Positions 1,594 to 63,372 of a stretch of DNA of 64,000 nt are shown here, piece by piece. The position numbers and the translations under genes were made by a program. The notes below the pieces were generated by a model. It saw only the letters and a list, made by a program, of their open reading frames with translations, was not told where the DNA came from and searched no databases. The stretch is from Stylophora pistillata (taxonomy: Eukaryota), in the NCBI RefSeq assembly GCF_002571385.2, contig NW_019217963.1:479164-543163 (forward strand), given 5' to 3'. How positions within the stretch are numbered: position 1 is the stretch's first letter; each line of letters starts with the position of its first letter.

Positions 1594-1884
1594 CTTCATC
1601 AGTGTCTAGTTCCACATGAACGTCGCTATCACTGCTTTCTTCCTCTGAATCTTCAGATATTTCAGCATCTCCAAAATATCCCGACTCTGAGATGGGATAA
1701 TTTGAGACCTCTTCAAGCAGTAGCTGAACACCTGGCACATCTTTTAATAAACTCCTTTCATCGATATCTCTTTCCAAATCACCTTTACGATCGGTACTCT
1801 CACTCTCAGAATCTTCCTCTGATATTTCTGCATCTCCAAGATGCTCCTCCTCGATAGCTTGATCTTCCGCCACTTGATTTGACA
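1594..1884 (-). CDS. Gene A acidic exon with duplicated GDAEISE motif
   Basis: TTTTAG|TG acceptor, GAAG|GTAAAA donor, 291 nt, phase 1-1. Encodes HLGDAEISEEDSESE and YFGDAEISEDSEEESSDSD. Confidence 0.7.
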
Positions 1885-4800
1885 CTAAAAGTGATCCATG
1901 GTTTGACATTAAAAATCACCGATGGTTTGACATTAAAAATCATTTATGGCGATGATAAAAAAATTGCAAATTTGAAGACCCGAGATATTAAACACGCGAT
2001 ACCCATATGAATTCAAATCCTATAACAAGTGATGAACATGTAATAACAACAACACATACAGGATATGTATCGAAAAATACACAGTCAAATAGTCGACTGG
2101 TTTTGCTGGTAAGTTCCATTGTGTATCTTGTGTAATGTTAATGTTTATCAAATTCACCTGAATTTTCTTGGTTCATAGAAATTCCTGCGAATGTCTTTCG
2201 TGCATTTTGAATTTTAAAAACTTCCAACTTTTTAAAATTCCGAAATAAACTGAAACAAGTTTCTTGAAATTCAAAATAAAGTTGAAAACACTTCAATCAA
2301 GAAATTCAATGCCCTATTTGCATGTTTGCCTATTGAAATACTGTCTCGCCAAAAACGCGAAATTAAGTTCTGCTAGGGTAATTAATTAATTCAATCATTC
2401 TTTTCACTTTTTCATTCATTTATTCCTTTTTCACCCTTTATCAATGCGCTGTTGTTGAGACCAGACATTCCTCTCGATTCCAACATTACTTCTTAAGGGG
2501 AAGATAAAATGCAGTCAAAAGGACTACAGCCGCTTTTCGTTCTTCATTGTTGGTAAAACATTTTCTTGAATCATTTTTAATCTAGTTTTGTTTTGTTTTC
2601 GTGTTTTAGTGATTATTTAGCCGAGTTCACCAATATTACTTGAGAAAATAACAAAGTGTTGTTTTTAGTTTATTCTTACAAGACTGTGTTTGGTTTTTTC
2701 CAACATCTCCAGCTGACAGCAAGGGCATTGTTTCATCTTCCGCAGGGAGTCTGTGCAATTAAAAGTGACAGCGCATCAATCTAACTCCGAGTGATGACCA
2801 TTAATGAAATATTTACGAGGTAAATTGTCTTGCAAACCAGATAATGCGCGGTTTTATGTGTTAGATCAAAACTTACTTCCTTTTAAATGTTCATTTGCGT
2901 ACCTTTTGGCTATTTCTTCAAGATACAAGGCTATCTCCTCCCAGGATTCCCTAGAGATGTACGGTCTAGCCGATGAGTAGATTGAAGCCACAGTATCAAC
3001 CACACTCTGAAGACCATCAACCAGTTGAAACAGTGTCTCTAAATCAAACAAGCCCAAAAAAATGAAGACGGGATAATCTGTCAATACATATCTCAAAAGG
3101 CTAAAGTTTTCTCATGTTGTCGAGGTTGATCAGCTTTTTTTGAGGTCTTTTTTTTTAAAACAAATTTAGCACTTTTTTATCAGGGAAGATTATGACAACG
3201 CAAGAATTTTACATATGACATAATAAAAAAGTTTCTCGTTAGAAAGGATAAATGTCGAGCTAAGTCTCGGTAAAAATGTTAAGTAAAAATGCTGAGCTGT
3301 GATCCCTCTCTCAAGAATAATCTCACCATATAACAATTTCACCATTGTTGTTGCCGACACGAAGGCTCACTCTTTTTTGCGAAACCAAACCAAACCAAAC
3401 CAAATGAGATATAACGAAACTAAAGGATGGATGCGGTATTTGTCTAAAAGTAAAGAGAACTTTCACTAGGATTTTGGCAGTAATCGCTAACTGATTATCC
3501 CGATTGTCAGTCATTTCGCAAAGAAAAATTGTTACTGTTTTCGTGTCACATATGATATAATATTATCAAAGATTTTGGCTTCCTCATATTAAGTATGTTT
3601 CGCAAGGTAATAATTTTGGAAGAAATACTATTTTGCGAAATGGACTATTTTCACCTTTCGGCGACGATGTCACAGTTTTCATGTCACGAAAATACGTTTA
3701 AACACTACATATAAGTATATTCCAGAAGATCTTTGTCACCTCTTATTTCTTAAACCGTACTGAATTATATTACAGAAAATAGTTATTTTAGGGAATTACT
3801 ATTTTGAGGGTCTCAGTAGGGTTAACCGATAGCCGTAAAGCAGTCAAAACATTTAGCCTTTAGGCGTAAAATTTGAAAATTTTTAAGTAGTAATCGTGCA
3901 AAAGTTAAATGTTTGGTAACAACTAAAAGCCATCACCTATTGAGAACCTCTTTTTGGCGGAATGGAACATTTTCACCTTCATTAACAATTTTGCTGTTCA
4001 CGTGTCACAGAAATACGTTTTAAGGGGATCCCTCCCCTGATTTCGCTTCGTTTCGTTTGGCCAAATAGAGTAAAGAGTAAACCCCAATGCCGGAAAAAAC
4101 ATTAGTGGAATTGTATTCTTGAGAGAGGGATCACAGATCAGCATTTTTACAAACATGTTCCTTTCCGTTCTGAATCATTCTCAGCTCTTTACAGACTATT
4201 CATCTTTCGGGAGAAAATTGTGAGGACAAGTGTTGCTTGAAATAGATGGAAATTTACCTATTTGATGATAATATTCGCTTGCTCTTTCTTCACTTCCCTG
4301 ACTCTCGTTACTGAAACTCTTGATTCGCTTTATAGTCTCCTCCAAAACCACGACAACATCGTTCACCGTTCGTTTAGGGTGCTTATTCTGCACATTATTC
4401 TTTGGATATTCCGGTCTCCTTTCCTTGTAAGTATATACCCCCTTTGCTACGGGATCACCGTACAGTGTGGTAAAGATGACGGAAACAGGTCCTGGCTTGT
4501 CACCACCTATTTCACGTGGAGGAATGAAAAAGCCATTGACGTCAAGACAAATCTTTACAATTTTCTCGTTACAAGCTGTCCTTAAATTGTTTGTTTAATC
4601 GTTGCATTTGGCTCACCTCCGGAATTATATGTTGACTTGACCATGAACAAGCTCTTCATTGATACACTAACAGGTAGGCATCATTAAAATTGGCACCAGT
4701 AGTGTTTCAATGCAACTTTTCTTTGTTAAACCACAATATTGTTACCCGAACTTTGGCACCAGTGGTTTCAATGCAACTTCTCTTTGTTAAACTGAAATAT

Positions 4801-7800
4801 TGATACTCGAACTTGGATTTGCTTCCTCCAGTTCAGTGGTGCACGTGTACAAAAGATTAGCTTTTCCTGGGTTATTGAAGACATTTGACTGAAGCTCAAC
4901 TTTGGCTTCAAAGAAACATGGAAATGGTAGAGACAAACTGAAGAAGTCTAAGCTGAAGGATCAGACGATTATGGAGGCTTTGAGAGCGGGGGTCAGGACG
5001 CAGAAAGACAGCACTCTATCAATAACTGAACGGGCCTACCGACTCGAAGTGGTCGAAGAGTTTTTTTTAAATTTTGTTGTTAAAAAATTTAACTGAAAAT
5101 CTGAAAAATGTAATATTCTATGTTTAAAAAAATCGGAAAAAAGTGAGCATTTTTATGTAGCCCACGAGTAGCATTATATTAGCACTTTTTTGGCAAAAAA
5201 CAAACACTGCTTTGAGCATCTAATGCTTTTTCTACGAGCACAATCGGTAAAAGCCTAGTTGCATTGTGATTCCATGAATTTTTAGCTAACATTTAATGAG
5301 GGAGGGGGGCTGTTAAGGATTTATAGTGAGGTAAAACTAGGAATGTTATTCTTCACATAGATAGAACTCTTCCGAAATGATGTGTCAACTCCTTTTGAAG
5401 CTGGTTGAAGGTTGTAGCTTTACTCCTACTATAAATGACTGACCATGAAAGGAAAATGGATGGGAATAGACATTGTACAAATCTGCGAGACGTTAAACCT
5501 TCTGACACCACCTCTCAGTGCGAAGTGCTGTTGAAGATCGATTACAAGTATTTTTAAACCAAGAGAGACAAAGGGATACTTACCAGGAATTTCATTTCCA
5601 AACATGCTAAGACCGTCCCTAGCTACTTTCACTTTCACCGCCGTATGTCCAAACGTTGCCCAACCAATTTCCATCGACTGTGGGAGTTCTATATCAACTT
5701 CTGCAGTGAATTTTCCACCGCCCTATTAAATGGAAAGAAATCGTTTGTCTCAAGACACTTTAAAAGGTCAATTTTCCGTGTCCCTTTGCCTGTTTACTTC
5801 GCTTAATTTTGATTTAGATGTTGGCATGCATCATTCTCATCCTCGAGTGAAAACTCTCTCTCTAGTTCCAAACTAGTAGACAGAAGAGAGGGGGTTTGAG
5901 AGAAGAGGGACCTTGTACACGGTAAGCATGTTGAAAGAAAACGTACTCTCCGGAATGTTATGCATAAAAAAGAACATGGTTAAAAACCTTTGTCTACGAC
6001 CATTTCAGGTAATTCTCAAATTTCCCCCTCTTAAAACCCCAGATTTCAACTTATCCTATGGATTTAGTGATGAACAATTATTCCATGAGCAACACATTTC
6101 CGTATAAGTGACGCAGAATATAATCTGATGACCGGAGTTGAATGAACCAATCAGAACACACCAAATGCAATATCTGGATTTGAAAATTTAATAATAGGGA
6201 ATATCCTTAAAATTGATTCAAAATTAATCACTGATTTGTTTAACATTGACCCCTTCATAAACTGAGGTGCACGGAAGAAGCAAACAATGAAGTTCGATTG
6301 TAAGGTAGTGTCAGGAGCGGGTAAGACGTGAAACGACCAAGGTTTCCTCATTAAGTTCATCGGCATCGGACGCCGTCGCACAAGCAAAATGGCTGCTCAG
6401 TCTTATTTACAAGGCATCAATCAACAAAATGTTGTCAGGCATTTTCGATACTTTGATTGATTGTGTAGATATCGGCATCTAAAGTTGCAGTAGCTAAATA
6501 TATGCGAGGCGCGTTGCGTGAATGGAAGCCACGGAACAAATATTCAAATACCAAAAATTTCCCGACACACTTTCATTCGTTATTATTCCAAGGATAATTT
6601 GGCAAAATTTGACGAAAATCGGTCTAATCTAAATACTAATTCGCTCAATGTAGTTGTATTCCTCCCAAAATCAAATGCGAGGCGATTATCTCGCCTACTT
6701 AAACCCCAAACCAATGGGACAATTTCCCGGGTAAAGTAACGCATTGCAGACACGTTTTTTTAATTTTTTTTTCAATCAGTGGAGCGTTGAGGAGAACGAC
6801 ATTATAACGAGTAAAGTTGCCAAAGGTAAAGGAAGAACCCGCATCAAAAATGGATAAACCGGAAAAGGTGCTGAAAAGCAAGAAAAAGAATCGACAGACA
6901 GCATTCAACATTACGATTAAGCCCCGGCGATTCGAGGCGATTGTTAATGTTTTTGTATCAAGGCTGGTACTTGCCTAAATAAAAGGAAACCTCGTTTTTA
7001 ACCTTGCGTATGACAAATTTTAGTTTGACGGCGACTTCTTTGTTCGAAATCTGGACGCCGTCGTAGAGCGCAGTAGCTTTCACTTTCACTTAGGATTTAA
7101 TGATAATAATAATATTAATAATAATAATAATAATAATAATGTCTTTATTCACCATTTCACTAAATGATAAGAATACAAATCTTTTAGAACAAGTAAGTGT
7201 AAGAAATTTTAAAAAGGTAAAAAGTAAGAATTAAAAATCTAGTACATAACAAAGCTAATTCCTATTTAAAAACTGAACGGTTAGTTAAATAGTTTTAAAA
7301 CGCATAGCGTTAATCTTAGGCTTAAAACAAGTTTCTTTCCTAAGATCGTAACTGGACGGTTTAACACGAGGCATAGTGGGTAAAACTGGATGTTCTTCAG
7401 CATTAGAAACTTTCTTGAAAATGTTACGGTCTTCCCTCTCTAAGAGATCGTAAACACTTACAGGCTCAGACGTGTATTTCCTTTTAAAAAAGCGGTCTAA
7501 CAAACACTGTACAGGTGTAAGATCGGACTCGGGTGCGGAGCAGACGGATAATGCGTGATCAATATTAAGTAGAACTATTGTATTAAAGAGAAGGTGCAGT
7601 TCTGATTGATTGCACCCCCCCTTTACCCTGTGTTCTAAGGATACGTAGGGATTTGTTAGCTTTGATAAGTTTATTCTTCAAGTGCACTGAAAATTTGCTA
7701 TCGCATTGAAAGGTGACCCTCAAAATCTCTACTTCATTACAGCTTACTATCATCCCGAGAGGTGAATAGAGATCGCGGTTGCCTCTCTTTTTGATCGCCA

Positions 7801-10800
7801 ACTCTTTACATTTGCCTGGATTGCAAGACATTCCATTTGTATTCGCCCAATATAAAAACTGTGACACTAACTGATCGGAGTGGTCTACCTCCTTCCATAC
7901 AGGAGCAATAATTGTCGAATCATCCGTGTACTTCAATAGCGCATTAAGATTATTGAGAAAGATGCTGAAAAGGTGAGGACCGCCAACGCTACCTTGAGTT
8001 GACCCTTTGTTAACCGGTTTCCAGTTGCACTCAAAGTTGTTGCAACATACCCTTTGTTTTCTATCCTTTAAAAAGTTTAAATACCAATTGGTAATATCTT
8101 AATTCAATGGCAACTCTTGTAATTTATTAGCGAGAAGTTCTAGGCCGGATCTATTGAGAAGTACATTTGGAACATTTTGAGCGCTATCTATTAAGATAGT
8201 GGAGGTTCCCTTAAGTTCTTATGATTCGAGACTAATAACGGATCAAAAGGCCAAAATATAACTACAAATTTGATGAACTTACCGTTAAGGGCCCCTCACT
8301 GGGATCCATTTTCGACTCACGAACTGATGTAGATTCTGGTTGCCCAATGGCCGTGTTATCTGTATGAAGATTAAACTTTATATCCCATATGAATATGTTA
8401 AATACGCAACGCAACCTTTTATCACACAATTGAACGAGTTGACCATAAAACTAATGCCAGAAGTGCAAGAGCTTATCGCGGTATCTTTAGTATGACCTAT
8501 CTCAACTGGTAACTTGTCTTGCCAGTTCACTAAAATGTATGTGTGTTATTGTTATTTCTATTATAATTATATTGTTATCATTATTATGACTATGATTATT
8601 TTTAGTATTATTATTATTATTATCAATAAAGATTTGGAAATGAAAAGACAAGCAAAAACCAACCCACTCTGAACGTGCAAAGCGATTCAGTTCGCGTAAA
8701 AGTATTTGTATAATCAGCTCCTAACATATTTATGCTAATTTAGTGTTACACCTTGCCGCAAATTTTGTAATTTTTATTTCTCCTTGACAATGGCGTCATG
8801 ATGACACCGAAACGTCGGTTTTTATCGTTGGTTTTTGCTTCTCTTTGCATTATTATTATTATTGCACTCAATAAAGCTCACCCTCTGAGCAAGCACCACT
8901 GTCAGTTTGTCCGGAAGAATCTGTAAGATCTTTTGTGACCTGACTTGACCGTAACTAAAACACGTTAAGGAAAAGGATAAGCCGGCAAGAACCGTTATCA
9001 CATTTTCTTATCCATTAGAAAGTGCGAGTAAAAATTTGCTGTTAGCTACATCATGAAATTCCGAAGGATAACCTAACGTACGAAAAATATTTTCAATTGA
9101 GCCATTTTGAAAACTCATTAAGCTGGCAGCTAAATAAATCTCTTGAAGCGATTAGTTTTGCATATAGACAAATTTCGCCATCTAATCTTTATTAGAATTA
9201 TTTATCTGTATAAATCTATATACTTCACTATGGTATGCAACTGTATTTTTGCATTCAAATCGTTACATCCGATCAAATCGTTTGATTAAAGAGAGCGTTA
9301 AAGTAAATGCTCCATTTAATTTGAACAACCCACCTTATTTTGTCCTCGATTGTCATTGGTCGATGATAAAAGCTTAAGTACCTTTTCATTTTTTCCAATC
9401 TGTTCCTCAAAGAGTCTGTCACCAACAAATGTGTCCAGGTCAAAGTCTTCAACTGAAAAATATGAGATGTCCGTCGATGAAATTCTACCTTACTTTTAGA
9501 TAAAGTAAAAGTTTACCTACATGATACATCGATAAAATTCGTGTCCATCGGACAGTTAATCGATGTAGAATACTAAGTACTAACATTCATCAAATCTTAT
9601 AGAATATCATCAGAAGCAGATTTACCTTCGGTGTCGTGAAAACTACTGAAATCTTCCTGAAAATTAGAGACAAAAAAGAGAAAGTCAAGGTTCGCATTAA
9701 GAGCTTTAATTTAATTACCCATGCTTATATGTCTCCGCATACAAGGAGTAGTCAGTGATGTGATTAGGGTATTCTCTGTAAGATTTTCCTTCCAAAACCA
9801 CCAGTTGTTTCAACAAGAAGTGTCATAAATATTTCGTAATGACACCTTAAAACTGTGTTTACTAAGAGAGGAAAAGGAACCAATTCAATCGGCCAGGAGC
9901 CGTGATGGGATCAACTCTTACTCATAAAAAAGGGCAATCATTTGTCTAAGGATGTGACGACCAGTCGTTGGTCAATGACTTGAAACTTAAGAGTTGTTTT
10001 CCTGGAGAATTGAATGGCAAGAATTATTTTTCTCGTATCGATTGTGATTAGACGTTGAGACTTGATTCGAGTGATAGCACTCTCGTGATTGAGCCGCGAC
10101 AAGTGGACGCGCAGTTATCCACTCCGTCTATTTTCTTCCGTTACTGCACCGTCAACAAAGTATTAATCAAGATCTAAATGTTTTTGGATCTTTTTGGTTG
10201 AATCCTGAATCTCTTACGATGAGCAATGTGTTTCTATGCGAGTTCTCTTTGGTTTTGGATACCAAGTTGAACCGACGCCATATTGTATTTACCGACAGTA
10301 ATTTGCCTCACCGAAGAAGATATCTTGCTCTCAAAGTGTGTTACTACAACAACTCTGACGCTAGTTATCAGCTGCAAAGGTTATTGCTAAGTGGTGATAC
10401 CGGAGTTTCGTTAAATCCTGGTCCTCCAGACTATAGCTACAACGACGTCGATGAGCAACGTACTCAAAACTCACGATCTTCCATCTATGCTTGTAACGGT
10501 AATTCCTTCCTTGAACTTCCGTATAAATGCTTAAATATTTTCCATTACAATATTTCCTCATTGACAAACAAGCTCGACAAAATAAAGCTACTTTTATCCT
10601 CCCTTTCCAATCAACGAAAAAACAGACCTAATTTAATCCCTGGAATTGCCGAAACGTTTCTAAACGATTCGGGGTCTGATGCTTCTCTTGCCGTGAAAAG
10701 ATATACCTTGTTCCGCGCCGATAGATTGGCTAACAAAGGAGGTGGTCTTCTTGTGTATGTTCCTGAACATTTGCCTATATCAAGAGGGAATGACCTCAAA

Positions 10801-13800
10801 ATGCCTGGAATTGAAACAATTTGGCTTGAACTTCGCTATCCAAGATCAAGACCATGTCTATTTTCGTTTGTCTACCGACCTCCTTCCGCCGATGCTTCGT
10901 TCTTTAAGCGGATGGACTCGATTTTGGCAAAGGTAGATTGTAATAACTATCGGACTTGTTTATTAGGTGATTTTAATATCGATCTTTTTTCAAAATCTGC
11001 TTTCCATAAATGGTTTATTGCCCTAACCAAGGCCTATAGTTTTCATCAACTTATTACTAATGCTACAAGACCGGTATCTGAAACACTTTTGGACCTTGTT
11101 TTGGTCAGTAATGGAGATAATGTTCTTAAATCAGGCACTCTATCGTTATCCCTAAGTGATCATCTTCCCATCTACGTGTCACTAAAATCTAGAGCCATTA
11201 AGGTACAATCTGAGGGCCACAAACCTGTGTTTTTCCGCTCAAAAAAATTTTTTTCTGTTAACACCTTTCTGGCCGATTTAGAATGTTTACCCTGGAGTGC
11301 AATGGATATGTATTCTGAGCCTAGTGAGGCTTTAAGTCATTGGTATACTTTATTTAAAAGCGTTCTGGATTCACACGCTCCCTTAAAAAAAACGCCGTGT
11401 CAAGGGGAAATTCATACCCGAATGGTTCAACAGTGAAATTCAAGCCGCAATTGCTACGCGGAACCATTTGCATAGAAAAGCGATTCTGTCAAACAATGCA
11501 TTATGTTGGCGTGAGTACCGTTCAGCGCGTAATAGAGTGGTTCATCTTATTCGTTATTCTAAGGTAAGGTAAAGTCTGTTTATGAGCCTAGTGGCCCATC
11601 AGGCCGGTGCTTAACTCCGGTTTCTGTAGCATGAAGCGACTAAGAGTATTTCTACTCCCCCCTGGATGGGATGCTAGTCCATCGCAGGGTTACCCCCCAG
11701 CATGAAACTTGCCAGTACCCATTTAAACACCTGGGTGAAGAGAGGCACTGTGAGAGTAAAGTGTCTTGCCTAAGAACACAACACAATGTCCCCGGCCGGG
11801 ACTCGAACCCGGACCACTCGATCCGGAGTCGAGCGCACCAACCATGAGCTGCTGCTGGATTCCCAATTTGGTTTCCGTAGTTCTCGTTCGTGTGAGCTTG
11901 CTATCGCCGATCTTTCCGATAACATTTTGACCAACATGGATAACAAACTCCCTAATGGACTTCTGTTAGTTGACAAACTAACAGAAAGCATTTGACCTTG
12001 TGGATCATGACACTTTTCTTAACAAACTTCGTATCTACGGTTGTTCCCATTCAACCATGACTTGGTTTCGCTCTTATCTGTCCGGGCGTTCCCAAATAAC
12101 CCAGTTTAGGGGCACTCTATCTGCAGCACTTCCAGTTTCTCTAGGTGTGCCTCAGGGTTGTATCCTGGGGTCACATTTCTTTATTATTAATATCAATGAC
12201 TAGCCATTAAACCTACATTCAGGCGTAACTTCAACTATGTTTGCGGATGATACTACTCTTCTTGTTGGAGGGCCCTCTGTTACTTCCCTCAGCACTCAGT
12301 CGAATGAGGTTGCTAGAACTGTGTCTACGTGGGCTGATAATAATCGAATGTCACTTAACACAACCAAAACTAAATCTTTACTTATTACGACCCTGCAGAA
12401 ACGCTGTACTTTAACCAGCTCGGCACTTGATTTCCAAATCAATGGTAGATCCATTGAGCAAGTGGACTATGCCAAGATACTGGGCGTCACGATAGACAGT
12501 GACATGTCTTGGGAGCATCACATCGATACAATATGCTGCATAATTAGCAGTAGGCTTTCTATTCTCCATCGAATTAAACCTTATCTTAACTTTGATTCTG
12601 CTATAAGGTTCTATAATTCTTGTGTTAACAACTACTTTATCTATTGTTCCGCTGCCTGGGGTAACTGTTCCCACCATCTACTCTTACGACTGCTTCGTCT
12701 CCAAAAGCATGCTGGCCGTATACTCCTTGATGCCGACCTCTCTCAGGCTTCTATTTCCTTATTTTTAAAACTCAACTGGATCCCCGTTTTTGACCTTATT
12801 AAAAACATGAAACTTTTACCTCTTCTCATCGTACTCTTCTATCCGAATGCTCCTATATGTCTTCGAAATAGATTTCAATTTCTTAGTGTTTCACGTGGAC
12901 CACAGGGCCGTTTTACAAGATCGTCTCTCTACAACTTAAGGGGGCATTCTGGTCAAAAAAAATTAAAAATCTTTATTTTTTTCGAAAATGTTTTGATGGC
13001 CTCTTTAGTTGGGCAAATCTGTCTAGTTTAAAGTTTTGATGTCAGTTTTTCCACTTCCAGTTTGCGAGTCAGTAAAAAATGAGGTTTTCTTAGCCTTGTT
13101 TTTTTGTTGTTTTTCGGTTTCCATAGCAACGGTTTCAAATTTTGCGTTATTTTTGCGATCGATGCGTTATAACTTGTTAAAACACGTTCCTACGGTCTGG
13201 TGTGACCAGAGTCCGTTCCACAGGTACAATCTTTTCGGTTCTAAGCTAGGTTACTAAGCCAATTCAGCTCTCGGCCAAAACTCCGCATTGCTCCATAATA
13301 CTTTCGCATTGCTCCATAATATTTTCGAATTACAATGCCAAAAGAAGGACGCAAACAAGCTGTTTTAAGGAAAAATGTTTCGAAAAAGCGAAAAAGTGGT
13401 TTCAGAGGCACTTCAGTCCATGATTTAAAGCGCCAGAATAAAGAGAAACGGCCAACAGTAGGAGTTACTTTCGTCGATGAAGACGATGTGGTCAGCGAGC
13501 TAATTCCACCACCAGCTGTGCCTGCATCTTCCAGAAAGATTCAAGTCTCTGAGACCGAAAGCCTCTCAGACGAGAATTCCTATAACGCTTTCGAGTCAGC
13601 AAATGGTTATCGCCTTGTTAGCATGGATAGCTTAAGGAAATTTTGTAACAGGATTCATTCACACTCTAGTACGAGAAGTCCTCTCAGANNNNNNNNNNNN
13701 NNNNNNNNNNNNNNNNNNNNNNNNNNNNNNNNNNNNNNNNNNNNNNNNNNNNNNNNNNNNNNNNNNNNNNNNNNNNNNNNNNNNNNNNNNNNNNNNNNNN

Positions 13801-49000: not shown

Positions 49001-52000
49001 TATTTGCAAATTTAGCAAAAATTAGTTCTAGCTACCACATAATTTTACGTCAGGATCAGAGAATGCATGTCTTCGCAATAAAATTTCGGCACTTTGCGAA
49101 TTCCTTTGACAGGATAGTTGGGAAAAAAACACCCGATCACAGTTCTTTTTTTTTTCTATTTTTTTGCGCCTTGACATATTTCACATTCAGATGTTATTCA
49201 AATCGCGTCTTCCCTTATTGGAGGATTCTTACAGACACCGATCAACCAATTTCCATTTCATTACCCTTTTTTTTTTCTTTTTTTTTTTTTTGCGGTACCG
49301 TATGGCGAAGAATCGATCGAACATGATCATGTTTTGAAATTTTTCACTTTAAGTGTTATCATATTGGAAACAAAACCTCATTAAAAATTAACTTTAATTT
49401 TAATGAGGTTTTGTTTTCAATATGATAATGAATGATACTTTCTTAGCTTCGACAATCAAAATTTCGCAAAAAACTTTAAATGTTTGAATGTTTTAAATGA
49501 AAAGAAAATCTGAGTGTATCCATACCTTTTATGGTACCAGAGGAAATGATACAAATTGAAAAAATTAACTTGCCTGTTGGGTTTGTTGCGTTCATAAATG
49601 TCCCTGTTGTCGTGGATTGCCGTGTTTGCATCAATGACACCTTTAACAAACATGGAAAGATGAAATTAAATCTGCTCCTTTAATCAAAGAAACCAATTAG
49701 ATCCCTGTAACTCAGTAGAGTTATGAATCGTGTAATCCAAGACCTAATTACAAGAGACCGAGGGCACCATTGTAACCGATATAAATGTCGTCTCTGCACT
49801 AAATGGGGTTACTGTAATTTCGCTTGTTTACAGGGAGAATTCTCTATTAAACACATATGAAAAATAAATGATAGGTTCAATGCGTGCTTTATCATTCTAA
49901 AATATCACTTACATTCCTTCCATTCTTAGAGTTGCGACAGCAGCTGGCCATGGTGGACGACGAATAACCTTAAATGAAAATATATTTATGCTTTACATGT
50001 AAACTTCAGGTTCGACACGAGGAGTTTTGTAACAACTAGAGAAAGTATAAAAATTATTGAAAAAATTCGTGCTCGAGTACCTTGTAAAGATAAAGGAGGT
50101 CCTCCTGCTGCAGGTAACACCAGGTTTGAGACCGGCTGATTTTGAATTATGAAAAAGTTATTGAAAATTAATTACTTTAATAATTTAAAACCAGTTGTTT
50201 TTGGCTTTTAAATATCCATCTAAATGTAATACATTTTAGCACAATAAATTTGCTTCAAGCATGTTCCAGTTTGTCGCAAATTTTATTTGTATTTACGAAT
50301 TTTATTGCCGGTGACAAGTCATCTTAGACTTTTCGTAGGCTTTGTGTGGGAATGCATTGATGGTAGAGATAGGGTTACTTTTTCCAGCAGGATAATCTTT
50401 TTGACCTGTGCAAGGCGCGCCATGCTGGCTTAAAATCTTCAATCAAAAACTTTCCTAATCCAAAGAGACCAGCTAGCAATACTCAAGGTCACTTTTAAAA
50501 CAAACAAACAGCGTATGTCACCTCCAGTCGTCTACATTGCTTTTTTAAGTGAAATTTGCAGAAAAATAACAATATCCAGACTAAGTCATAAGAGCAGAAT
50601 TGATTGCACAATTTCCCAGAAGATGACTAATACGTACCTTGAGTTGAGGTTCGGATGAGCATTTGAGGTGAGATGCTGGATTATCTTGGTTGTTCAAGAA
50701 ACTGTAATCCACTGAATTTCCTTCAAGAAAATTAAATTTGATTTAAATGTTCATACGAGTTAGTAATGGTATAACCAAAAGGTGAGATAACTTTTGGAAA
50801 AATGTCGTTTATGTCAACTTTTGACCGTTTATGTTCACACGGAATAAATCTTACCTGTTAATTCATTAGAATCTAAAGAAGAAGTTTTTGAATCCACTCC
50901 TGCAACGAGAGGCTGGGCCACAAAACCCTTTTAAAGAAAAAAGGGAGGAAGGTTAGGAATTTGTTTATACAAAAAATTACGTTTTTACGCGTTCGATTAC
51001 TAAAAGGAAGACTAGTTTAAGTAGAATCCACTCCAATTTTTCCATGGAATTAATATATAATTTTCAGCCTCTTCTATGCCTCACTTTTTCAGAGCAAATG
51101 TTGATTTCAATCCAAAATGCCAAGCACAACTTTAAATAGGAATCATTTTTTAATCATTCGCAGGGAATAAAAGGAACCTTTTATTGTAAAAAATCTCTTA
51201 CTTGTCGATTGTGTCCACTATTGGAGAAACATTTATTCCATGGATGACCTGAAATTAAATCTCATTTGTAGGGAAAAGAGAACTTTTGTTATTGGGATAT
51301 GTCTTACCGGTTGATTATCTCCACTGTTGTAGAGATCCTCATCCCATAAAAAACCTGAAATTAAATACGTTACGTATGAAACATTGTCTTACGGTACCGT
51401 GTGGCGAATAACTAAACAAACATCATCGTCTCTTGTAATTTTTTTCCAATCAATCTTTGTTTTAAATGGGAGGAAAATCAGTGGATTCATTAATTCCTTT
51501 CATGGTACCAGAGAAACTGATACAAATTGAAAAAATTAACTTGCCTGTTGGGTTTCTTGTGTTTATAGATGTGACCGTTGTCACAGATTGCTGTGTTTGG
51601 CTCAATGACACCTTTAACAAAAAGGGAAAGATTACATTAAATGTACTCCTTTAATCAAAGAAACCAATTAGATTATCTCAGTGGTGTTATGAATGTTGTA
51701 ATTCAAGTTCAAATTTTAAGAAACTGGTAACAAGCATCATTGTAACCGATATAAATGGCGTCTTTGCTCTAAATGGGAATACTGTAATTTTGCCTATTTA
51801 CAAGGAGAGATCTTCAGTCAACACATGTGAAAAAATAAATGATAGGTTCATTGCGTGCGTTATCTTTAAACTATCACTTACAATCTGGCCATTTTTGGAG
51901 TTCTGAAAGAAGCTGGTGGACGACGAATGACCTTAAATAAAACATGTAAGCTTCAGGTTTGACACAAGGAGTTCAGTAACAACCAGAGAAGACATAAAAA

Positions 52001-52936
52001 TTTTAAAGAAAACTGTACCTTGTAAAGATGAGGGAGGTCCTGCTGTTGATGAAACCAGGTTTAGGACCGGCTAATTTTGAAATATGAAAAAAATGTTGTT
52101 AATGAGTTCATTTCTATTCAAATCCAGTTGGACTTGTACTCTAGCATGTAATCCAACTTTTCGTAAAGTTTTGGAAATTGCGCCAGAACATTTTACTAAT
52201 GGTCTTTGCGATTTATTTTGTCACACCAATCACCAATTTTTCATTTAAAAAATCTATTCTGTATCATCTAGCATTAGGTCTCGATTAAGAAAACTGTGGA
52301 TGTTCCCACATTTTACGAATTGCTTAGGTCAGAGTGCCATACCAGGAAGTAACGAAAGCGAAAGGTCACTAATTCCGAGGTGATAAGCTTCAAAATCATG
52401 CATTCGTATGTTTTATATATATATTTATGGATATATCTTGTGTACCTTGTCCTCCATGACTAAATACAACGCCGATTGGCCTTTTATGTATCTTTTAATC
52501 ATTCGTCCATCCCAAACACGGTGTTCACCATGAAAATTTAATAAATCACTGGTCTGTCCTTCTCGTGATGCACACGAAAACCTAAATAATAATGAGAAGA
52601 AAAAGTATTCCCATAAGGGATTCTTTAAATTTCGCAGTTCCGTTCTCTATAAATCAAAGCCATGAGAGTCATGCAGCGCTGGTTTTACAATCTATTAATG
52701 AATGCAAGTGGTTTCTAAGAAACGTCAAGTACTTACTTCACTTACCTTTTATTTGACAAGATAGGGCGAAACAAGTTTTCAAACAAGCCTCTTACATCAC
52801 CATCTGTCATGTCTTGACGAAATGTCACACGACGCTTGTACCGTTCTCCTTTCCTCAATCCTGCTATTTCTGATAGGGTCAATGTCCTCGTTTCATCTTC
52901 GGTGAGAAGATAAACATTTTTTTGGAATCCTTCCAT
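37020..52936 (-). CDS. Gene B: paralog of gene A; 19-exon model, 641 aa (novel N-domain, S/T linker, DFDLE, DSGISS, IPT/TIG)
   Basis: Exons 52746-52936, 52446-52581, 52019-52070, 51882-51931, 51545-51611 (GC donor), 51308-51354 or 51202-51248, 50855-50927, 50638-50720, 50081-50135, 49913-49968, 49574-49640 (GC donor), 48767-48834, 48185-48215, 47802-47914, 41367-41442, 40534-40622, 39708-39846, 39141-39362, 37020-37330. They sum to 1926 nt with no internal stop. 3' end uncertain: alternative donors near 37198 and 36948. Confidence 0.8.
37818..38433. mobile_element. Penelope-like element remnant with inverted pLTRs and RT fragment
   Basis: Minus strand YFQYNGSIYE..EGTAVGSPVS..ITNL...WKRYLDDTF is a PLE RT. 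Inverted arms at ~37820-37919/38296-38395. CTGAGGA...GAAA core at 38303-38332. Confidence 0.85.
39141..39362 (-). CDS. Gene B exon, IPT/TIG C-terminal half
   Basis: GDAPGPVTVTFTTLNGDYVAKAIFTYKKFENSTTEQTTRAKRF; the PGxVxV...FTY pattern is an IPT signature. Confidence 0.85.
39708..39846 (-). CDS. Gene B exon, IPT/TIG core
   Basis: GGGIFRAEIDEELPPLMATAWASFGNRSEKVRVTRDGLAMFGEEIP. Confidence 0.85.
40534..40622 (-). CDS. Gene B exon, IPT start (RMKPSEGPLQ|GGG)
   Basis: 89 nt, phase 1-0, canonical splice sites. Confidence 0.8.
41367..41442 (-). CDS. Gene B exon with DSGISS degron-like motif
   Basis: LMGKDRLPNYVRDSSGQSDSGISSE; 76 nt, phase 0-1. Confidence 0.8.
41624..41841. mobile_element. MITE (TA-GACTAC termini)
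   Basis: TAGACTACGAGCAGTCCCTCCTTTTCGGCGAAGTCC is inverted at GGACTTTGCCGAAAAGGAGGGATTTCTCATAGTCTA. Confidence 0.8.
41851..46076. mobile_element. ~4.2-kb non-autonomous TIR transposon with 10-bp subterminal repeat arrays
   Basis: CAATGCCTGCTGTGCGGCCTTAA vs right reverse complement CAAGGCCTACTCTGGGGCCTTAA. GGCGACTTAA arrays at ~41880-42005 and ~45950-46060. No transposase ORF. Confidence 0.7.
47045..47784. mobile_element. TTAA-site Kolobok-like MITE
   Basis: TTAA|GGTGGCTGAACACAGTTTT ... AAAACTGTGTTCAGTCACC|TTAA. Confidence 0.85.
48647..48681. repeat. (GGACTTT)n microsatellite
   Basis: 5 copies. Confidence 0.9.
49290..52095 (-). repeat. Intragenic tandem duplication in gene B (49290-50165 vs 51390-52095)
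   Basis: Co-linear exon and intron similarity across three duplicated exons. Confidence 0.9.
49357..49427. repeat. ~30-bp-arm hairpin
   Basis: TATCATATTGGAAACAAAACCTCATTAAAA / TTTTAATGAGGTTTTGTTTTCAATATGATA. Confidence 0.85.
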
Positions 52937-54339: not shown

Positions 54340-54600
54340 CTACTGGCTTTGTTACTGTGTTTACGCGCAGTTTAATTGCGATGTGAAAATTAATGGGGTT
54401 ATGAAATAAATAAACCTCGTTCTGGCTTGCTGGTATGTCGGCTGATAATGTCCTTCGCTGAGAGATTGTCCTCAAAATTTCATATTTGCCCTCGAAACTT
54501 CGCTTCTCGGCCAAATATTCATTTTTTGGACAATTTCTCAGCTGCGGACATTATCAGCCGACATAACAGCCGCCCGAAGGGGTTTATTTACTAAATATTT
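54340..54600. repeat. Interspersed non-autonomous repeat (related to ~62845-63010)
   Basis: Shared CCGAGAAGCGAA and GGACATTATC motifs. Family not assignable from sequence alone. Confidence 0.4.
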
Positions 54601-55619: not shown

Positions 55620-55880
55620 CTGAGAAATTTACACCTCTGGCATTTCCAGAGTAGTCATAAAAGGGTAAAGGACTTCTTTATTTCCGATCCTGAGCGACTC
55701 GATTAGTCATGACTAAATGCCACGAGGTGATTTTGCACGGAAAAATACATGGCATTATCACATGACCATCATAATGATGATCGACATATCAAAACATATC
55801 ACTGAGACTGATTTTACTTGACGAAAATAGCATTGAATGATCATGTGACCATATTATTTGTCTCGGTCTCCTTGACAATT
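55620..55880 (-). promoter_or_regulatory. Putative gene B first (non-coding) exon and promoter with M-box pair
   Basis: GCCAGAGGTGTAAATTTCTCAG|GTGAG is homologous to gene A GCCAGAGTTATGGATTACTCAG|GTAAA. TCACATGA 55758-55765 and TCATGTGAC 55841-55849. Confidence 0.55.
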
Positions 55881-58800
55881 AATACTTTTCGAAGCCCACA
55901 GGAAGTCGTGTATTTATTTAAGAATCCTGTTCTGTGACCTCCTCAATCTTTCTTACTCCTTTCCTCTTTTCTTTTTTACAATCACTTTACGATATTAACA
56001 AGACACAAGAATTCAAAGACAAGACTAAATATCGCGTGTTTAAAAACTATGACATATCAGGGGAGGCCGCGAGCCATCCAGCATTCACTATCAAATAAAG
56101 CAGTCAGCATTCGCCGTCTACAACAGCAGATCGGCAACTTGTTACCGAAAAATGGAACTTAAAAAGTATGCCCATGTACTTGAAGACAATTTACAATTAA
56201 AAGCCTAAGTCCTCGGGTTTTTCCCCCGAAACTATCACGATTTTAAGATTTCCAGTCAGCGGTAATTCTTTCTGCAGGTATGTTTGATATTTTAGACCTT
56301 CGAGACTGCTGCCATGAATCACTTTGAAGGCGGTCGAGATCCCTCTTAAATTTCAGTGTCATGAGTGTTTTAAGAAAAATTTAATTGTTAAGGCTAAATT
56401 TCGCATAAGTTTAAAGCTTAGCGTGAAACCAAATAACATCAAGATGAGCGAAGAACACTCAAGACCAGCGGATGAAGGCAACAACCATTTGAAATCTGAT
56501 AAGATGCTCGTTGGAACGGAAGAACATGCTTGATTGAATTGGAAAGGTGACGTTTCCTTTCAAACCTTCGACGAACCATCGCACGTTTGCAAAGTTTTCG
56601 TTTAAGTAAACCGTAAACCTATTCATTGGGGAAAGAAATGTTACAAGCACATTTATGTGAAGGAAAGACCGGAGTTGCTCGTTTTTCTGGTGTTATATGT
56701 CTAGGTTTACTTCATCTGGTCTAGTCTAATGCAGAGTTCTATGCGAGCGAACCAGCACAAATTCAGTGGTCTTCTGTTAGAGCACGAGCAAAACTTTCGA
56801 TTGAAACACAGGGGATACGGGATCGAATTGAACCTAAATTTGAATGATGAACTATTGAAAGCTCTCCCTAAACTCTAAGGAGAAAACATTTTCGCCTTTA
56901 TAAGACTCTCCGCTTACCTGAATGTAGCCAGTTGGGTCGGTAAGATAACTTGAGTTAAGAATCCAGTCATTCGGCAGCGCTAAAAATGAAAGCTGAAAGC
57001 TTACACTCCACATTGTTAATTCAACGAATTCCTTGAGTGACTTGAGTCTTAGATTACGAGGATGGTCATGTGACAATACACTTTCTCAATCAAACCTCCA
57101 CGCCGGTGGTTGGTAACCCGACACGACATGATAGTAGGAAGCGAAACCATTTCGACCATTGCCACATTTATTTTTTGGAATTAGAATTCTAGATGTCGTC
57201 CCAGTAGACTTCTGAACTGATTTTACTAAAGGTTTCTTTTCTTAAACCTAAAGCTGTACACACATGTCAATGTTAAACGTTCTCTTCTTAATCTAAAACA
57301 TTAAAGGTCATTTGTCGCGTTTTTTCTAGTTGTCATCAAAGCTAACGAAATAAACCAAACACAGAATTATTCTGCGATCCGCACGCTTTTTTTATACTCT
57401 GTTTACCCCTGCTGAAATGAAAGTAGTCGCAGTTGTATATCGCATTATTTTGATATGAAAGGAATATAGATTTCCCTTTTTGAGGGGATAAAAACTTATA
57501 TCTATTTTTTTGGCATTGTAAAGAATCTTTGCGAGATCGAAATAGAACGTCGACTATTGTTATGATTATTTGCTCTTTAAGAAAGAAATTGACTGGTCGA
57601 GGCCCTTATAAAACTTGCTTTAAGCTCTGATAAATCAATTGCTCGAGAATGGGTAAAACAAATTATGTGCAATTTTCCAGATCTACTTTTTTGAGAAATT
57701 CATCACATCTGGAAAAAAAGATATTTCCAGCTGCACAATTACGGACTACAAATTATCATTTATCGTTCGAATGACTTTTGCTTATTCTGATGCTGATAAA
57801 ATTCAAAATTCTCCTTTGAAATAATAAGCACGCCTTTTGACAAACGGGAAGGAAGAAAGCAAGAGAAAAGATCACAAACTAACCCGGAAAACCGTGACTT
57901 CTTTGTTTTGACCAAATCAAATAAGGCGGAGCAATCACCTAAAGGCGAAAAATCACCACCGAAGACAGGACATCGAGGAACGCAACCGCAAACAACAAAT
58001 GGGGAACTGGCTGCATGCAAGCGAGGCACGCGTGCACGTGAGGTTTGGTTAGGCTTCTATCCTGCCATCAAAGCCAATATGAGAGACGAGGTAGCCTAAA
58101 GATCATAGTTCAAAAAAGCTCTTACAGCGGCCCATTTTTAGAAAAACCCTGTAATGTTACGGGCCCCAAAAAGTTGATTTTTGTCAGTCCTGTTTCATTT
58201 AAGGACGAGATATTGACAGTTTTGAGAATAGAATAATTAAAAATCAGAAAACGAATCAGAACGATTTAATTAATAATTATTCGATCTAAGAGATAAACAT
58301 TTGTAATTCGAAATCAAAAAAGCGCAAATTAAGTCTTAATCTCGTAGTAGAATTCAAGAAAAATGTGATTGGAAGCTTACTTCTGTGGCGGGTCGTAAAA
58401 AACAGGTTTCTCTCTTCAGGTTAACAGATTCAGGTAAGCGAACAGATTATAAAAACCGATTCCTCTCTTATTGATTCTTCTGAAAAACTGGTTTAAAACA
58501 TGATAAGCTGACACTTTTAAATTATTGTACGGAATTAATTTCAAACACGAGTCCTGTAATTAAAATATATCTGTCATCAAAGGCAACACCTATTTACAAA
58601 ACGAAACAACAATCAGTGTCTATCTCATGTCTGTGGAGTACAATAACATCTCAACTGAACTGTTGAACAAATATTTTTCTTTTCATTCCATATAACAACG
58701 AGAAACAAAGTAATAACCCTAACCATAATGAGTCATAACATTTATGATCTGAAATACGTGATCATTACTTGGCGAAATCTTAACTTTATTTACTCATAGC

Positions 58801-60476
58801 GACAATAATTAAATGACAAGTATAAATCAATTTGATAGTCAGAGCTATTAATGCGGAAAATTTTTAACATGATTTATTGATAACAATCAGACCTCACTTA
58901 GCTGGGAGAACACTCCCAAAGGCCTCCAAATGAAACTTCAAAGTTCCATATCAATTTTGCATTGCAATCATCAAAAATGTCCAGCAAAACATTTTTTCTT
59001 ACTACAAAAACTAGAATTAACTTAGTCGCAAGAATACGATCATTGGCCTCCATAAGTTACGTGAAAATTCCGTGTTAATTTTTTGTTTTCAATCAGCACT
59101 GCTACTGTAGCCCAGGCAGTTGTATTGATTAAAGAATAGTTGAGAGTCCTGTTTTTCCTGATTTTTTTTTCCTAATTTTCCGCTATCATTGACTATTGTT
59201 ATAAAATTATATCAATCCACTACATGTAACACACGCCCAACAAGCTTTGATGTGTATCAGTTGTGCAGTGTTTCAGGTACAATTACATGATTAGTAATTT
59301 GGAGCAAGATGTTTTTCTTATTTTATAATACTTCTCCTGTACAAATTTGTATTTATATTAATAACAATCGTGATGACACCTTTAAGAATTCCACCAGTTG
59401 TTTCTTCTGTGTCAAACAATTGATAATAATAACTAATCATGTACCAATAATAGAATAAAACAGTCTGTGTCAAGCGTGACCCATTTGATTTATCTATATA
59501 TTGTCTCTTACAATAATGTTGAACCATGGATTGCAATTATAAGAATACTACAAAAAATCAGCGACAAAACAACACACTTTCACTAAATTCTCCCCTTTAT
59601 ATCATAAAAGGGAAAAATTTGTATCTCATTTCCTTTAAGGCTCCTTGCAGACTTTGCATTCATAACCACTAAATAAGAAACACAGTAAAAACTACCCTAT
59701 TTGGCAAAGATGATAGTCTCAGTTTTTCTTCTTTCAAGTAAGTACATGCTCAGAGTCTTAGAGGGCTTTCAGTATCTAAACATGGAACATGCTTTACGTT
59801 GGGCATAAAAAGTGTATATAGTTTCGTTAGAATCATGCATTACGTAATGTGACCTGCAACTCTTTACTTAGGACTTTCATCGGGAGTCAAGAATCCTCCA
59901 GAGCCTTTTTAGAAAAAGATACGAGACTGTACATATTCTCATTACTCTTCCCCTTACTTCTGAAACGACTCCGCGTATTAGTCCATTTGAGCTGCAAGAG
60001 GAAATTGAAAATTATTACCTATTACAGGGCACTCCTGTCCAACTAGGCTTTACGCACACTCAAAAGTGCAATCCTGCAAGGCATCCGCCCCCTTCCCTTA
60101 AACAGCCTCCTGAAGATGGGGCTTTCTAAGAATATTCGTTACTTCAATCGTTTTCTAGATGGAGGGAGTCATCTGGCATAAAAGTGTTTTAATCATAAGG
60201 AAAAGGAAAAAGGGCAATGGTAATTTGGCCTCTTTGAAAGGCGTTCAAAGTAAAAACTAAGTATCATAATATTCATCAAAAACTGGTCCAAACCTCGACA
60301 GTTTTATTCGGCAACGTCGCTTCCGAATGTGTTCTTTGCATCTGAAAAAAAAAATGCGAAATTATTTAAAGTATACCACAAGGTTATTCATTGAAAACTT
60401 AAATTTCGCGGAATCTTTTTCTGTAAATCTGTCTAGCTGTCGTGTCTTCTTTGAGTCTCTCTCCGTTCACCACAGT

Positions 60477-63372
60477 TTACTTCACAGCCTAACCAACACA
60501 CAATTTCCCTCCGGAGAAACGGTGGCCATGAAGGTATAAAAATACGTTATAGAGAAGGAAACACTGGGCTGATATATAAACCGCCGGAAACCTAAAGATG
60601 TTGGATCAATATTTGTTAGCTTCACGTTCTCTTAAATTTACCTGCGCTGGAATAGATGGCTCTGTGTTTCGTCTCTCCGGTGTTGCATATTGAGATATCC
60701 TCAGTTTTTCCTCTGTCTGCAATCAAAATAAAAATATTAATAAAAGCAGCGGGACACAACAATCAGTTTCTTTTCCTCATTTAAATCTAAATAAGTGAAA
60801 GCTGATGGTGTGACTCCTAACTCGCTCACCCAAGGAGATACAACTCGTCCATATGGCTGAAAAGAACGTTTCACCTCCTAAAAGCATATGGTATATCAAC
60901 ATTACAATTCCAGTAGAATGTCTCATTATACCATTGGAAAACTAGTTTTGAGATTATCTTCTCCAATGACGCAATCCTGGAGCGCTATTAGAATTTTCCT
61001 AAAGTAGTTCCGCACATAAATGTGATGGTAACATTGCGCTGTAATGATCTTGCTTGCTACGGATCGCTTTTCATTTCAAAGCTGAATAGACCTTGTGCAA
61101 GGGGCACTACCATAAGAATAACGCCTACCGGCAAGCGTAGCAGCGCCCGCACTTCTTCCAATCGCTCAACCTGTTTTTCTCTTTCTCTTTGGTCTGCGAG
61201 CAAAGTTTGAAGCTTTTCGTTCTCTTCTTTCGTCATGTTTGTGTCTCCTGATTGTAAGTCCGCAACACGTGCGTTTAGATCTTTGTGCACGGCTTTTAAG
61301 TTATGAAAGGTGAAGTCATAAAATTGTTTCCTCACAATTTCGTCGCATGTGCAAGCTTGCTTTGTCATGCCTGTTACTTTCGAATACAGTTCCACGAGAT
61401 TTCTACCTTGAGTACCGATGATATCCAACTTTTTTTGGACGGTGAAGGTTTCTTCTTTCAGTTCGTGCATTTCCAAACTGGAAGTTATGTTTGACAGAAT
61501 CATTTGCAGAATTTCCAACTTCTCGGAGATTTGGTTTACTTTGAGGGTAAGATGTGAATATTCAGCTGTGCTGCTAGTTTCTGTTTCTTTTAATTTGGCG
61601 TATTTCCTGTAATCTGGCCGATAGCATTAATGTAGTCTTTGATTTCCTGGATTGACAGTTGAAATTCGTAGAAATTCAAGTTAAGATGCATACTATGCAT
61701 AATATTTTGATAACTAAATAGATTCACAAACATGGAATATTTTACAAAAGGCTTATCCTCGTATTTGTCCTCGAAAATTGATAGTTTTTAAGAATAAATG
61801 ATGAAAATTTTTTTCTGATTGTAATCAGTAATGGCATCTTTAAGTCTCCTTAAAATTGCTCCTTTTCGCAACCTGAAGCAAATTAAAATTTTCAGATTAA
61901 AAGGTAAAGACGAATGGTACATTTAAACTTATGAAATATCAGTTGTGCAGTTTTGGTCTCAATAAATGTAAACGAAATCTTTCTTAGACAGATCTGGAGC
62001 GAAGTAATTATCTGCCCATTTGGCTGCCTTATTAGTCCAATTCCATGAGCTATCATGAAACTTTTTCCTAATAATTGATATTTACCTTCAAAGACGTATT
62101 GAATTCTTTTCTCTTAGTCTCCCACACGAAGAACGTTGACGTTTCAGTTCTGTCGTAGCCCAATATGATCTAATTCAGTTAAGAAAAAAAAACATAAATA
62201 AAGACGAAATAGGACTGGTCACCGTGGAAAAGATTATAGCGCGCAGCAATGTTAATCACACCTTCAATTGTTATACAGATGTTAATAAAGTCAATCAACT
62301 CTCCGCTAACGGAAATCTCGTAAGTGGACAGTTCTATTTACGGTCACTTTTCCACTTCCCCTTTTTAATTTGCTTCTCTTTTAAACTCTGTATTTACACA
62401 TTCCCTTTAGCGGACGCTCTTTCGTAAGTGGACAAGGTCAATTAAAAAAGGGAAAATTGTAATTTTCTTTTGTTTACGCTCCCTGGTAAGTGGACGCCCC
62501 AGGAATAATAATTGTCGCTTAGCAGTAAGATTTTTCTTGAAGTGGCAAAAAAATATATACGACCTTTGGCAGAGCAACAGAACAGTGGGGATCGGTTTTG
62601 TCTAATCTCCACTTGTGTGCGGGAAGGTGCCCGTCCTTTGACATTAACAAGACTCCGACATAACAGCCCCCGTAAGCGGAAATCCTCCCTATTTTCCTTT
62701 GAAGTCCACCCATGGCATCACTTTTTCTAAGCGGACAGTTCTACTAACAGACACTTTTTCTAATTCCGGAGGGCGTCCGCTTACGAAAGAAATGACTGTA
62801 CCAGTATTCCTTCCACTTCTATATGAACAACAGCCTCTGTCTGACGCGAAAAATGCTCGCATATTTGTTCTCGGACATTATCTGTTCCGAGAAGCGAACA
62901 GCTTTGCGAGAGGGAAGCTCAAGGAAAACTTTGAGCTTAGAGGAAAAGGTATTGTCTAATGACAAAATAATATACGAGGATGTTTTAGCGCCAAATGGAA
63001 GATAAAATATTCATAACTCTTCAAATTTTTTTGAAACGCGCCGGCAAAAATATTCACAAACAGCTAACCGTTTACTGTGTGGGATGCTTATGGACATTTC
63101 AGAGTTCTTTAGTACGGCATTATAAAAAGAAACCAAATTTGTCCCTTCTACTATCACATCAGCTAAACTTTATCTCGTCTTAGATTAAATTGCAGGTGGA
63201 GACTTTTATCTTACTGCACTGGAGGTTGGGTTCAAAATTTATGGAGTATCAGTTAGTATTCTTTTATATCACCTATGAATATTCCAAATTCATATACGAA
63301 CCTGGTTTTCATCGTCTACCTTAATCGTTCCTCCAACCTCAAAGGTGAGTGTTCTTCTATCATTGACAGGAG
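60477..63372 (-). CDS. Gene D: paralog of gene C (helical/coiled-coil part; death-domain exon expected off-window); one -1 frameshift
   Basis: Exons 63302-63372, 62086-62169, 61129-61646 (518 nt, one short of phase 0-0, frame break near 61610), 60642-60716, 60477-60488 (AVK*). All splice sites canonical. Confidence 0.75.
62287..62800. mobile_element. pogo/Tc1-type MITE (TA-CAGTC terminus)
   Basis: Right end GACTGTA. Repeated TAAG(C/T)GGAC motifs. Left terminus degraded. Confidence 0.65.

Follow-up and report, generated by a model that had tools for sequence, protein, structure and literature searches.

Two kinds of gene alternate along a stretch of the genome of the coral Stylophora pistillata, and the locus raises the question of whether they form a working immune pair that was duplicated as a unit, or whether they are linked by position. 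The window analysed here is the whole stretch of 64,000 nt at positions 479164 to 543163 of contig NW_019217963.1 in RefSeq assembly GCF_002571385.2 (G000:C180:479164-543163; contig C180 below), and the genome searched was 398 Mb. A preliminary description had read the window as a tandemly duplicated cassette, in which a death-domain gene is followed by a gene for an IPT domain with a degron motif, and had proposed an adaptor-plus-effector immune module undergoing birth-and-death evolution, with the caveat that the linkage could be hitch-hiking in a segmental duplication. We find it somewhat probable that the locus is a tandem array of two gene families grown by repeated unequal crossing-over, in which a pair D plus B gave rise once to C plus A, in which exons were swapped, and in which the pair is linked by position and is not a working module; the hitch-hiking caveat is the part of the earlier proposal that fits best. 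The duplication is real but ordinary for corals, a functional cassette is unlikely, and the genes are not homologues of NF-kB p105.

All four genes lie on the minus strand in the order D (59.9-63.4 kb), B (35.3-55.7 kb), C (24.5-30.1 kb) and A (1.6-16.7 kb), as had been proposed. D and C are death-domain and helical-bundle genes, C being a pseudogene, and B and A are ubiquitin-like and IPT genes. Self-blastn of the window reproduced the exon and flank matches: C/D exon pairs are 72-87% identical at offsets of 33.3-35.4 kb (for example, 25711-26225 against 61138-61666, E-value 7e-79), and A/B pieces show 75-85% identity over 57-130 bp at offsets of 32.3-38.9 kb, in agreement with the about 31-39 kb given before. 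The non-coding 3' flank of D (57194-57465, minus strand) matches that of C (23928-24188, minus strand) at 75% with an E-value of 1e-44, as described for 57195-57465 and 23930-24200, and is homologous also to flanks on contig C3. For the second proposed flank pair, 24270-24425 and 59690-59825, about 71 bp align (77%, E-value 2e-9) but the remainder does not. The promoter match noted between 16.9 and 55.8 kb corresponds to a conserved upstream element on the minus strand (55821-55881 for B, 16909-16968 for A), 61 bp at 85%, but it is family-wide and not specific to the pair, occurring also upstream of gene E, a third IPT gene to the right of the window, and of paralogs on contigs C438 and C870. 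The lesions in C and D, the truncation of B, gene E and a third copy of the death-domain gene's upstream region were new beyond the preliminary description.

How the pairs arose can be examined by synonymous distance (dS), which is 0.80 (0.60-1.13) between D and C and 0.89 (0.66-1.21) between B and A. Because these intervals overlap, wide as they are, one old joint event from D plus B to C plus A fits, and a single co-duplication is likely on the basis of these distances. The distances to E are larger (A-E, 1.34; B-E, 1.63), and an alternative pairing of E plus D with B plus C, which would need the B-E distance to equal that of D-C, was rejected on dS. Turnover after the joint duplication is clear from sequence comparison. 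Alignable DNA amounts to 37% for C/D, 16% for A/E and 3% for A/B, so that non-coding alignment differs between pairs; a spare copy of the death-domain gene's upstream region (20240-23900, minus strand), 95% of which aligns to D's upstream DNA at 78%, has no gene behind it and ends at a 15-base N gap; and the order of copies is uneven elsewhere, being bundle, death domain, IPT, death domain, death domain on C3, and three death-domain genes, an inverted pair and IPT on C438, with a varying order on C870 also. The inverted pair on C438 consists of near-identical bundle-gene halves with a common centre (L021-L022, G000:C438:37.7-40.4 kb). Birth-and-death evolution, as had been suggested, is supported.

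Gene A shows why duplication as a unit holds in part. Its upstream element, likely start exon and two ubiquitin-like-domain exons (14661-16968, minus strand) are E-like, whereas its three IPT exons (4258-8359, minus strand) are B-like; a micro-exon encoding DSGACS (8882-8920, minus strand) lies between them, and a degenerate ankyrin-like exon, a linker exon and an acidic exon follow (1594-3038, minus strand), with a phase-1 donor at 1594. The gene is a mosaic, E-like in its first exons, flanks and both ends and B-like in the middle, with a support of 90 in the IPT tree, and therefore one clean duplication does not describe A, although the overlapping dS values favour a joint origin of the pairs. 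A tree of the ubiquitin-like domain was set aside for placing A, its support being too weak. The expected site of A's next acceptor is occupied by a high-copy short repeat element (37-330), after which an assembly gap follows; this site is homologous to an intron end in E and in a gene on C870, the acceptor homology being judged by eye. The repeat (37-310, and again at 27073-27341) has inverted ends, very high RNA depth on both strands and a high copy number, resembling a miniature inverted-repeat transposable element. Decayed endonuclease and reverse-transcriptase pieces like those of long interspersed nuclear elements (LINEs) were found by Pfam in A's introns at 10093-13031 (plus strand) and 7285-8098 (minus strand), and RefSeq splits A into two models near the former; another LINE-like piece, judged by eye, lies between B and C at 30603-32000 (plus strand).

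The left edge also bears on the view that the repeat structure is partly an artefact of assembly, through merged haplotypes or mis-scaffolding. Positions 1-161 of the window and locus L004, beyond a 2.8-kb gap, are 161-bp inverted copies at 98.8%, which suggests a scaffolding error at the gap left of the window, and exons beyond this gap were not counted as part of A, as the join looks mis-scaffolded. Several N gaps, the resemblance of contig C2414 to a duplicate of the IPT gene on C3, and the position of the clusters on C180, C3, C438 and C870 near contig ends would be in keeping with such an artefact. The dS of 0.8-0.9 for D/C and B/A is, however, far above allelic levels, and the assembly is free of gaps from 20239 to the contig's right end, so that C, B, D and E are contiguous; we hold an artefact to be very improbable. 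Some 3.2-3.4 kb to the left of the window, L004 contains a P-loop exon that shares 94% identity with the N-terminus of Logan protein P0005; on either side of it lies a copy of a late exon of the type found in the death-domain genes of contig C163.

The state of the death-domain genes is the next point to consider. Intact relatives (transcript-derived and RefSeq paralogs P0002 and P0006) run from a death domain through short linker exons and a helical domain of about 170 residues to a tail. Of 14 copies of the death-domain exon, all have a phase-1 donor and 13 a phase-1 acceptor, so that 13 are phase 1-1. The death domain of C, as read earlier, is Pfam PF00531 (29674-30075; E-value 9.5e-12; 45 bits against a gathering cut-off of 22.6); its exon (29752-30050, minus strand, phase 1-1) carries a Trp to Arg change relative to the C3 paralog. 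In the remaining exons (24479-29058, minus strand) an acceptor has changed from AG to TG near 29060, one extra base is present near 28803 in exon 2, and the bundle exon has a stop at 25764-25762. With the paralog at C3:2383k as reference, these are three disabling lesions specific to C; a second stop, at 25289-25287, also occurs in this assembly's copy at C3:2383k. C is a pseudogene. D has exons at 63372-63302, 62169-62086, 61646-61129, 60716-60642, 60341-60300 and 59991-59887 (59887-63372, minus strand), and its death-domain exon, 69% identical to that of C, falls just beyond the window (L001:111-410); one frameshift at the start of the bundle exon leads to a stop at 61592-61590. An exact look-up of six exon open reading frames of C and D found none. 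The bundle domain had no relative in the Atlas search (blank), in the PDB profile search (best E-value 0.64) or in Pfam, which gave only sub-threshold coiled-coil matches, and a single-sequence fold of P0002 was discarded (pLDDT 37). Pocillopora proteins P0001 and P0089 carry a tandem pair of bundle domains, and their models lack a death domain.

The RNA runs that contain the window are from coral, and their reads, evaluated for genes B and C, show that B is expressed and C at most faint: the depth at C's death-domain bin is below 1 in four RNA runs from three studies. Reads on the bundle exon of C were rejected as C expression, as all carry letters that differ from C's, and of 10 listed alleles 9 agree with the paralog at C3:2356k. 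Since one copy of the death-domain gene is broken and the other carries a frameshift in this assembly, the pair probably does not function as a two-gene immune module, contrary to the earlier proposal.

Gene B is matched, nearly everywhere at 100%, by the RefSeq protein XP_022792771 from Stylophora pistillata (621 residues, P0007). On the minus strand, two exons for a ubiquitin-like (beta-grasp) domain (52446-52936, residues 1-109, pLDDT about 90-97) are followed by a linker of many small exons (46277-52094), disordered and rich in Ser, Thr, Asn and Gln, with an acidic stretch and a basic KPNRKRNK stretch and with an internal duplication of three small exons (49489-50197 against 51458-52130, 76%). 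A motif exon encoding DSGISS, of DSGxxS type (41367-41442), is N-terminal to the IPT domain and spliced to 40622, and three exons (39141-40622) encode the IPT/TIG domain and a following helix, as fold searches and splicing indicate. The acidic exon (37660-37790) has a stop at 37701-37699, upstream of its donor, and two Logan proteins, P0083 and P0084, terminate at this residue too. Spliced 3' exons follow (35227-37329: 37329-36949, 36743-36690 and 36096 onward), with AATAAA at 35370; they are homologous to the coding tail of P0095, a paralog of 1040 residues, but decayed and interrupted by stops (59% and 68% for the two that aligned). By its motifs the P0095 tail may be COR-like, but Pfam gave no match. 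Seven canonical joints of B are among the 15 of 49 RNA joints listed; each was seen in two or more of the three raw-read runs and also in run X2, on the expected strand, and none of these 15 reaches C. The B transcript ends near 35.2-35.4 kb with its own 3' end and appears to end on its own, its stop lying ahead of three decayed exons. The stop precedes three introns (35227-37329), an arrangement that in many animals would trigger nonsense-mediated decay, but the B transcript is easily seen. The ab initio model PFX24320 (P0082), in which a 3' part of D is fused to B, was rejected as read-through: it starts behind the frameshift, and RefSeq B starts at its own Met.

Exchange of exons between the two families can be followed at gene E (L001:5195-10000 and L002:1-9225; G000:C180, 5-19 kb beyond the right window edge), in which an IPT module is predicted to run into the 3' exons of a death-domain gene of C163 type, the phase 1-1 exon for the death domain itself being left out. 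E is readable through 15 AG/GT exons (671 residues) with no stop, starting at the motif exon and finishing in the last exon that death-domain genes also have. Its bundle shares 65% identity with P. verrucosa P0086 and falls into the C163/C13 subfamily, apart from that of C and D. The exon after E's phase-1 acidic exon resembles the exon after the death domain in C163-type genes, and the A-like gene on C870 has the same exon; in A itself the corresponding junction is interrupted by the repeat element and the assembly gap. Downstream of that C870 gene (L029:4200-7700) there are decayed kinase-like frames. In P. meandrina, gene model P0079 (CAH3168207), possibly a merged one, connects a B-type acidic exon with a C163-type death-domain exon; the partial P. 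damicornis P0085 stops at the same acidic-exon junction; Logan protein P0005 has a P-loop exon fused to a bundle exon of C type; and a C163-type last exon lies downstream of the IPT gene on C438. It is likely that exons were swapped between the IPT and death-domain families at a shared phase-1 junction.

The same junctions could be read in the opposite direction, as remnants of a single ancestral gene with ubiquitin-like domain, motif, IPT, ankyrin-like, acidic, death-domain and bundle parts, an independent analogue of the p105 layout; its fission and the loss of exons would have left the free death-domain genes and truncated IPT genes of today and would explain the linkage. The splice match from the acidic exon to the exon following the death domain in E and C870, the join in P0079, the end of P0085 and the last exon at C438 all speak for this history. 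Yet no retrieved protein combines IPT, death domain and bundle, and none of four matches in one search covered both IPT and death domain; P0079 is a gene model, and in P. verrucosa P0086 the same exon comes after a Met of that protein's own; distant members of the family bear kinase, ApoL, leucine-rich repeat (LRR) or other tails and no death domain; and D and C belong to a different death-domain subfamily from that fused in E. We regard such a fission as unlikely.

Whether the two families are found together elsewhere in the genome is a further guide. One ubiquitin-like exon has at least 32 matches in the genome, and the bundle exon has 21; 6 of the former 32 lie on contigs with death-domain and bundle genes, and 7 of the latter 21 on C163 and C13, contigs with no ubiquitin-like exon match. 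A profile scan of 165 kb of C995 and C374 gave eight ubiquitin-like and three IPT2 matches and no death domain or bundle, and a scan of 110 kb of C163 gave five pairs of death domain and bundle and no IPT. Both families thus also occur unlinked in this genome, and a fixed pairing of intact genes was not found across it. Members on C995 and C374 (L056-L072) have two ubiquitin-like domains ahead of one IPT; a 2071-residue "open reading frame" on C995 was rejected as an N gap.

Against this background, a co-selected adaptor-plus-effector immune module of D/C with B/A, kept and duplicated as a unit, seems quite unlikely. It would account for the matching dS, the alternating order and the occurrence of both families on one P. 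meandrina contig, and the bundle domain common to the death-domain genes and E could putatively mediate binding. However, C is defunct and D carries a frameshift, whereas B is expressed; the families are unlinked elsewhere with copy ratios that vary by contig, and B lacks both bundle and death domain.

Several observations weigh against an array of genes linked by position. On C180 and C3 alike, the gene after B is of C type. P. meandrina CAH3041118 (bundle) and CAH3041124 (B-type) lie on one 9.06-Mb contig, their closeness being judged solely from accession numbers six apart, and linkage of the two families is old and may be conserved. The frameshift of D is seen in this assembly and may stem from an assembly error or from a private allele. 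Run X2 gave a contig of depth 5.85 with C's own letters including the stop, so that the stop in C is real and C may be weakly transcribed. As 34 of the 49 joints are outside the listing, rare read-through from B to C is possible, and the borders of E were picked within 8 bases to hold the frame open, making its junction a predicted one.

We turn to what the IPT genes encode. A model of B built from 61 sequences has two confident domains. Residues 455-575 form an IPT domain and helix (Foldseek E-value 4e-5 to EBF3 and RelB), with structural matches at Z 10-11.7 to plexin, CAMTA1, EBF and the DBB domain of BCAP and an Atlas score of 0.90 (180 features), so that the fold named earlier is confirmed despite no Pfam match to IPT in B. 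Residues 1-110 form a beta-grasp (Z 6.2-6.9 to SHANK3 SPN, TBCB and RalGDS, a middling score). Sequence searches of the PDB with B or profile A1 found nothing. The best fold matches, with plexin IPT, are the TIG domains of CAMTA1 (Z 11.3, root-mean-square deviation (rmsd) 2.3) and EBF3 (Z 10.8, rmsd 2.1), but the DNA-binding domains of EBF/COE and CAMTA proteins are absent from B and identity is 16-21%.

The comparison with p105/p100 made earlier proved loose. B resembles these proteins in its IPT fold of transcription-factor type (Foldseek E-values 4e-5 to 1e-3 to RelB, p50 and p52) and its DSGxxS-type motif, and a death domain is present in the linked genes and in one Pocillopora model. Unlike them, B has no N-terminal Rel DNA-binding domain (no Pfam match to the Rel homology domain), no glycine-rich region and no ankyrin array, E and its relatives having one weak segment; neither A nor B has a death domain, B stopping at 37701-37699; the motif of B precedes the IPT domain, whereas that of p100 follows the ankyrin repeats (PMC5700166); and the chimeras run from IPT to death-domain gene, not from D to B. 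The DSGxxS consensus is that of beta-TrCP substrates (PMC13097077). Of 12 family proteins, 5 have it (0.4-1.8% in shuffles); all 5 belong to the A/B clade, and in them it precedes IPT and varies in its middle residues; the only one in B is at residue 435, the C3 copy has DNG, and E has DSALGS.

A closer likeness is to BCAP, BANK1 and Dof, in which a TIG fold is followed by helices: B aligns with the BCAP DBB domain 6sws at Z 10.6 and rmsd 5.6 over 108 residues, the second-longest alignment listed, with a score tied with the CAMTA, EBF and plexin rows. BCAP has a TIG fold, helices and ankyrin repeats and is a signalling scaffold whose TIG domain dimerises without binding DNA (PMC7128310). The differences are that the N-terminus of B is a beta-grasp and that of BCAP-type proteins a TIR domain, that the ankyrin likeness of the coral family is weak and lost in B, and that its C-terminal modules are variable. 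PF14545, the DBB domain, gave no match for B (E-values up to 1) or six relatives (up to 5). In E and relatives a segment of about 70 residues after IPT is weakly ankyrin-like (3 of 21 PDB matches, E-values 0.32-0.91; no Pfam match), and the model and sequence searches gave no ankyrin repeats in B. Corals have a separate true Dof (PMC7260276). Judged from the model, B is nearer to BCAP, EBF and CAMTA than to NF-kB p105 and is not a p105 relative.

B belongs to a hexacoral family that extends beyond this species. A search of 1.84 billion representatives gave 62 matches, and the 10 proteins looked up (nine matches and the query) come from Stylophora, Pocillopora, Orbicella, Montipora, Desmophyllum, Oculina and Nematostella. 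The front end is constant and the tails differ, with kinase (E-value 5e-19), ApoL (3e-7) and weak LRR and Roc matches; some relatives have a second ubiquitin-like domain, judged by eye. A literature search judged by titles and abstract starts, with supplements that may hold orthogroup tables outside its range, found no publication on this IPT family. Tandem birth-and-death, pervasive in corals (PMC10236652), and lineage-specific domain combinations are shared with known coral immune gene arrays (PMC10236652, PMC12314368, PMC5094078), for which unequal crossing-over has been discussed as a mechanism (PMC12314368); the available parts of these three articles name neither family, and the array described here differs in that the linking exon junction can be located.

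In an array of two families linked by position, unequal crossing-over between interleaved genes would copy, delete and join them, and compatible exon phases would let some joints stay in frame. By analogy with BCAP and EBF, the IPT proteins would dimerise as signalling scaffolds and bring together their replaceable C-terminal modules, and turnover through a phosphorylated DSGxxS motif is predicted to set their lifetime. B, having no such module, would act as a decoy partner that dampens its relatives, and the death-domain genes would serve as adaptors, a task that would fall to the intact copies on other contigs; an immune role is suggested by domain content alone. Tentatively, and with considerable doubt, this may be extended to a hexacoral degron-gated IPT chassis, with a ubiquitin-like, IPT and ankyrin-like front whose phase-1 donor would take death-domain, bundle, kinase, ApoL or LRR modules from its neighbours; a p105-like chain of IPT then death domain would have been rebuilt independently of NF-kB, and module-less copies such as B would be decoy dimer partners.

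The value of the locus lies in an unannotated IPT scaffold family, invisible to Pfam, that ranges from Nematostella to several stony corals in many copies with swappable effector ends, and in an array that displays the junction between two families. If confirmed, it would be a testable case of coral signalling architectures made by exon exchange, and its genes would be candidate regulators of IPT-dimer signalling in coral stress and immunity.

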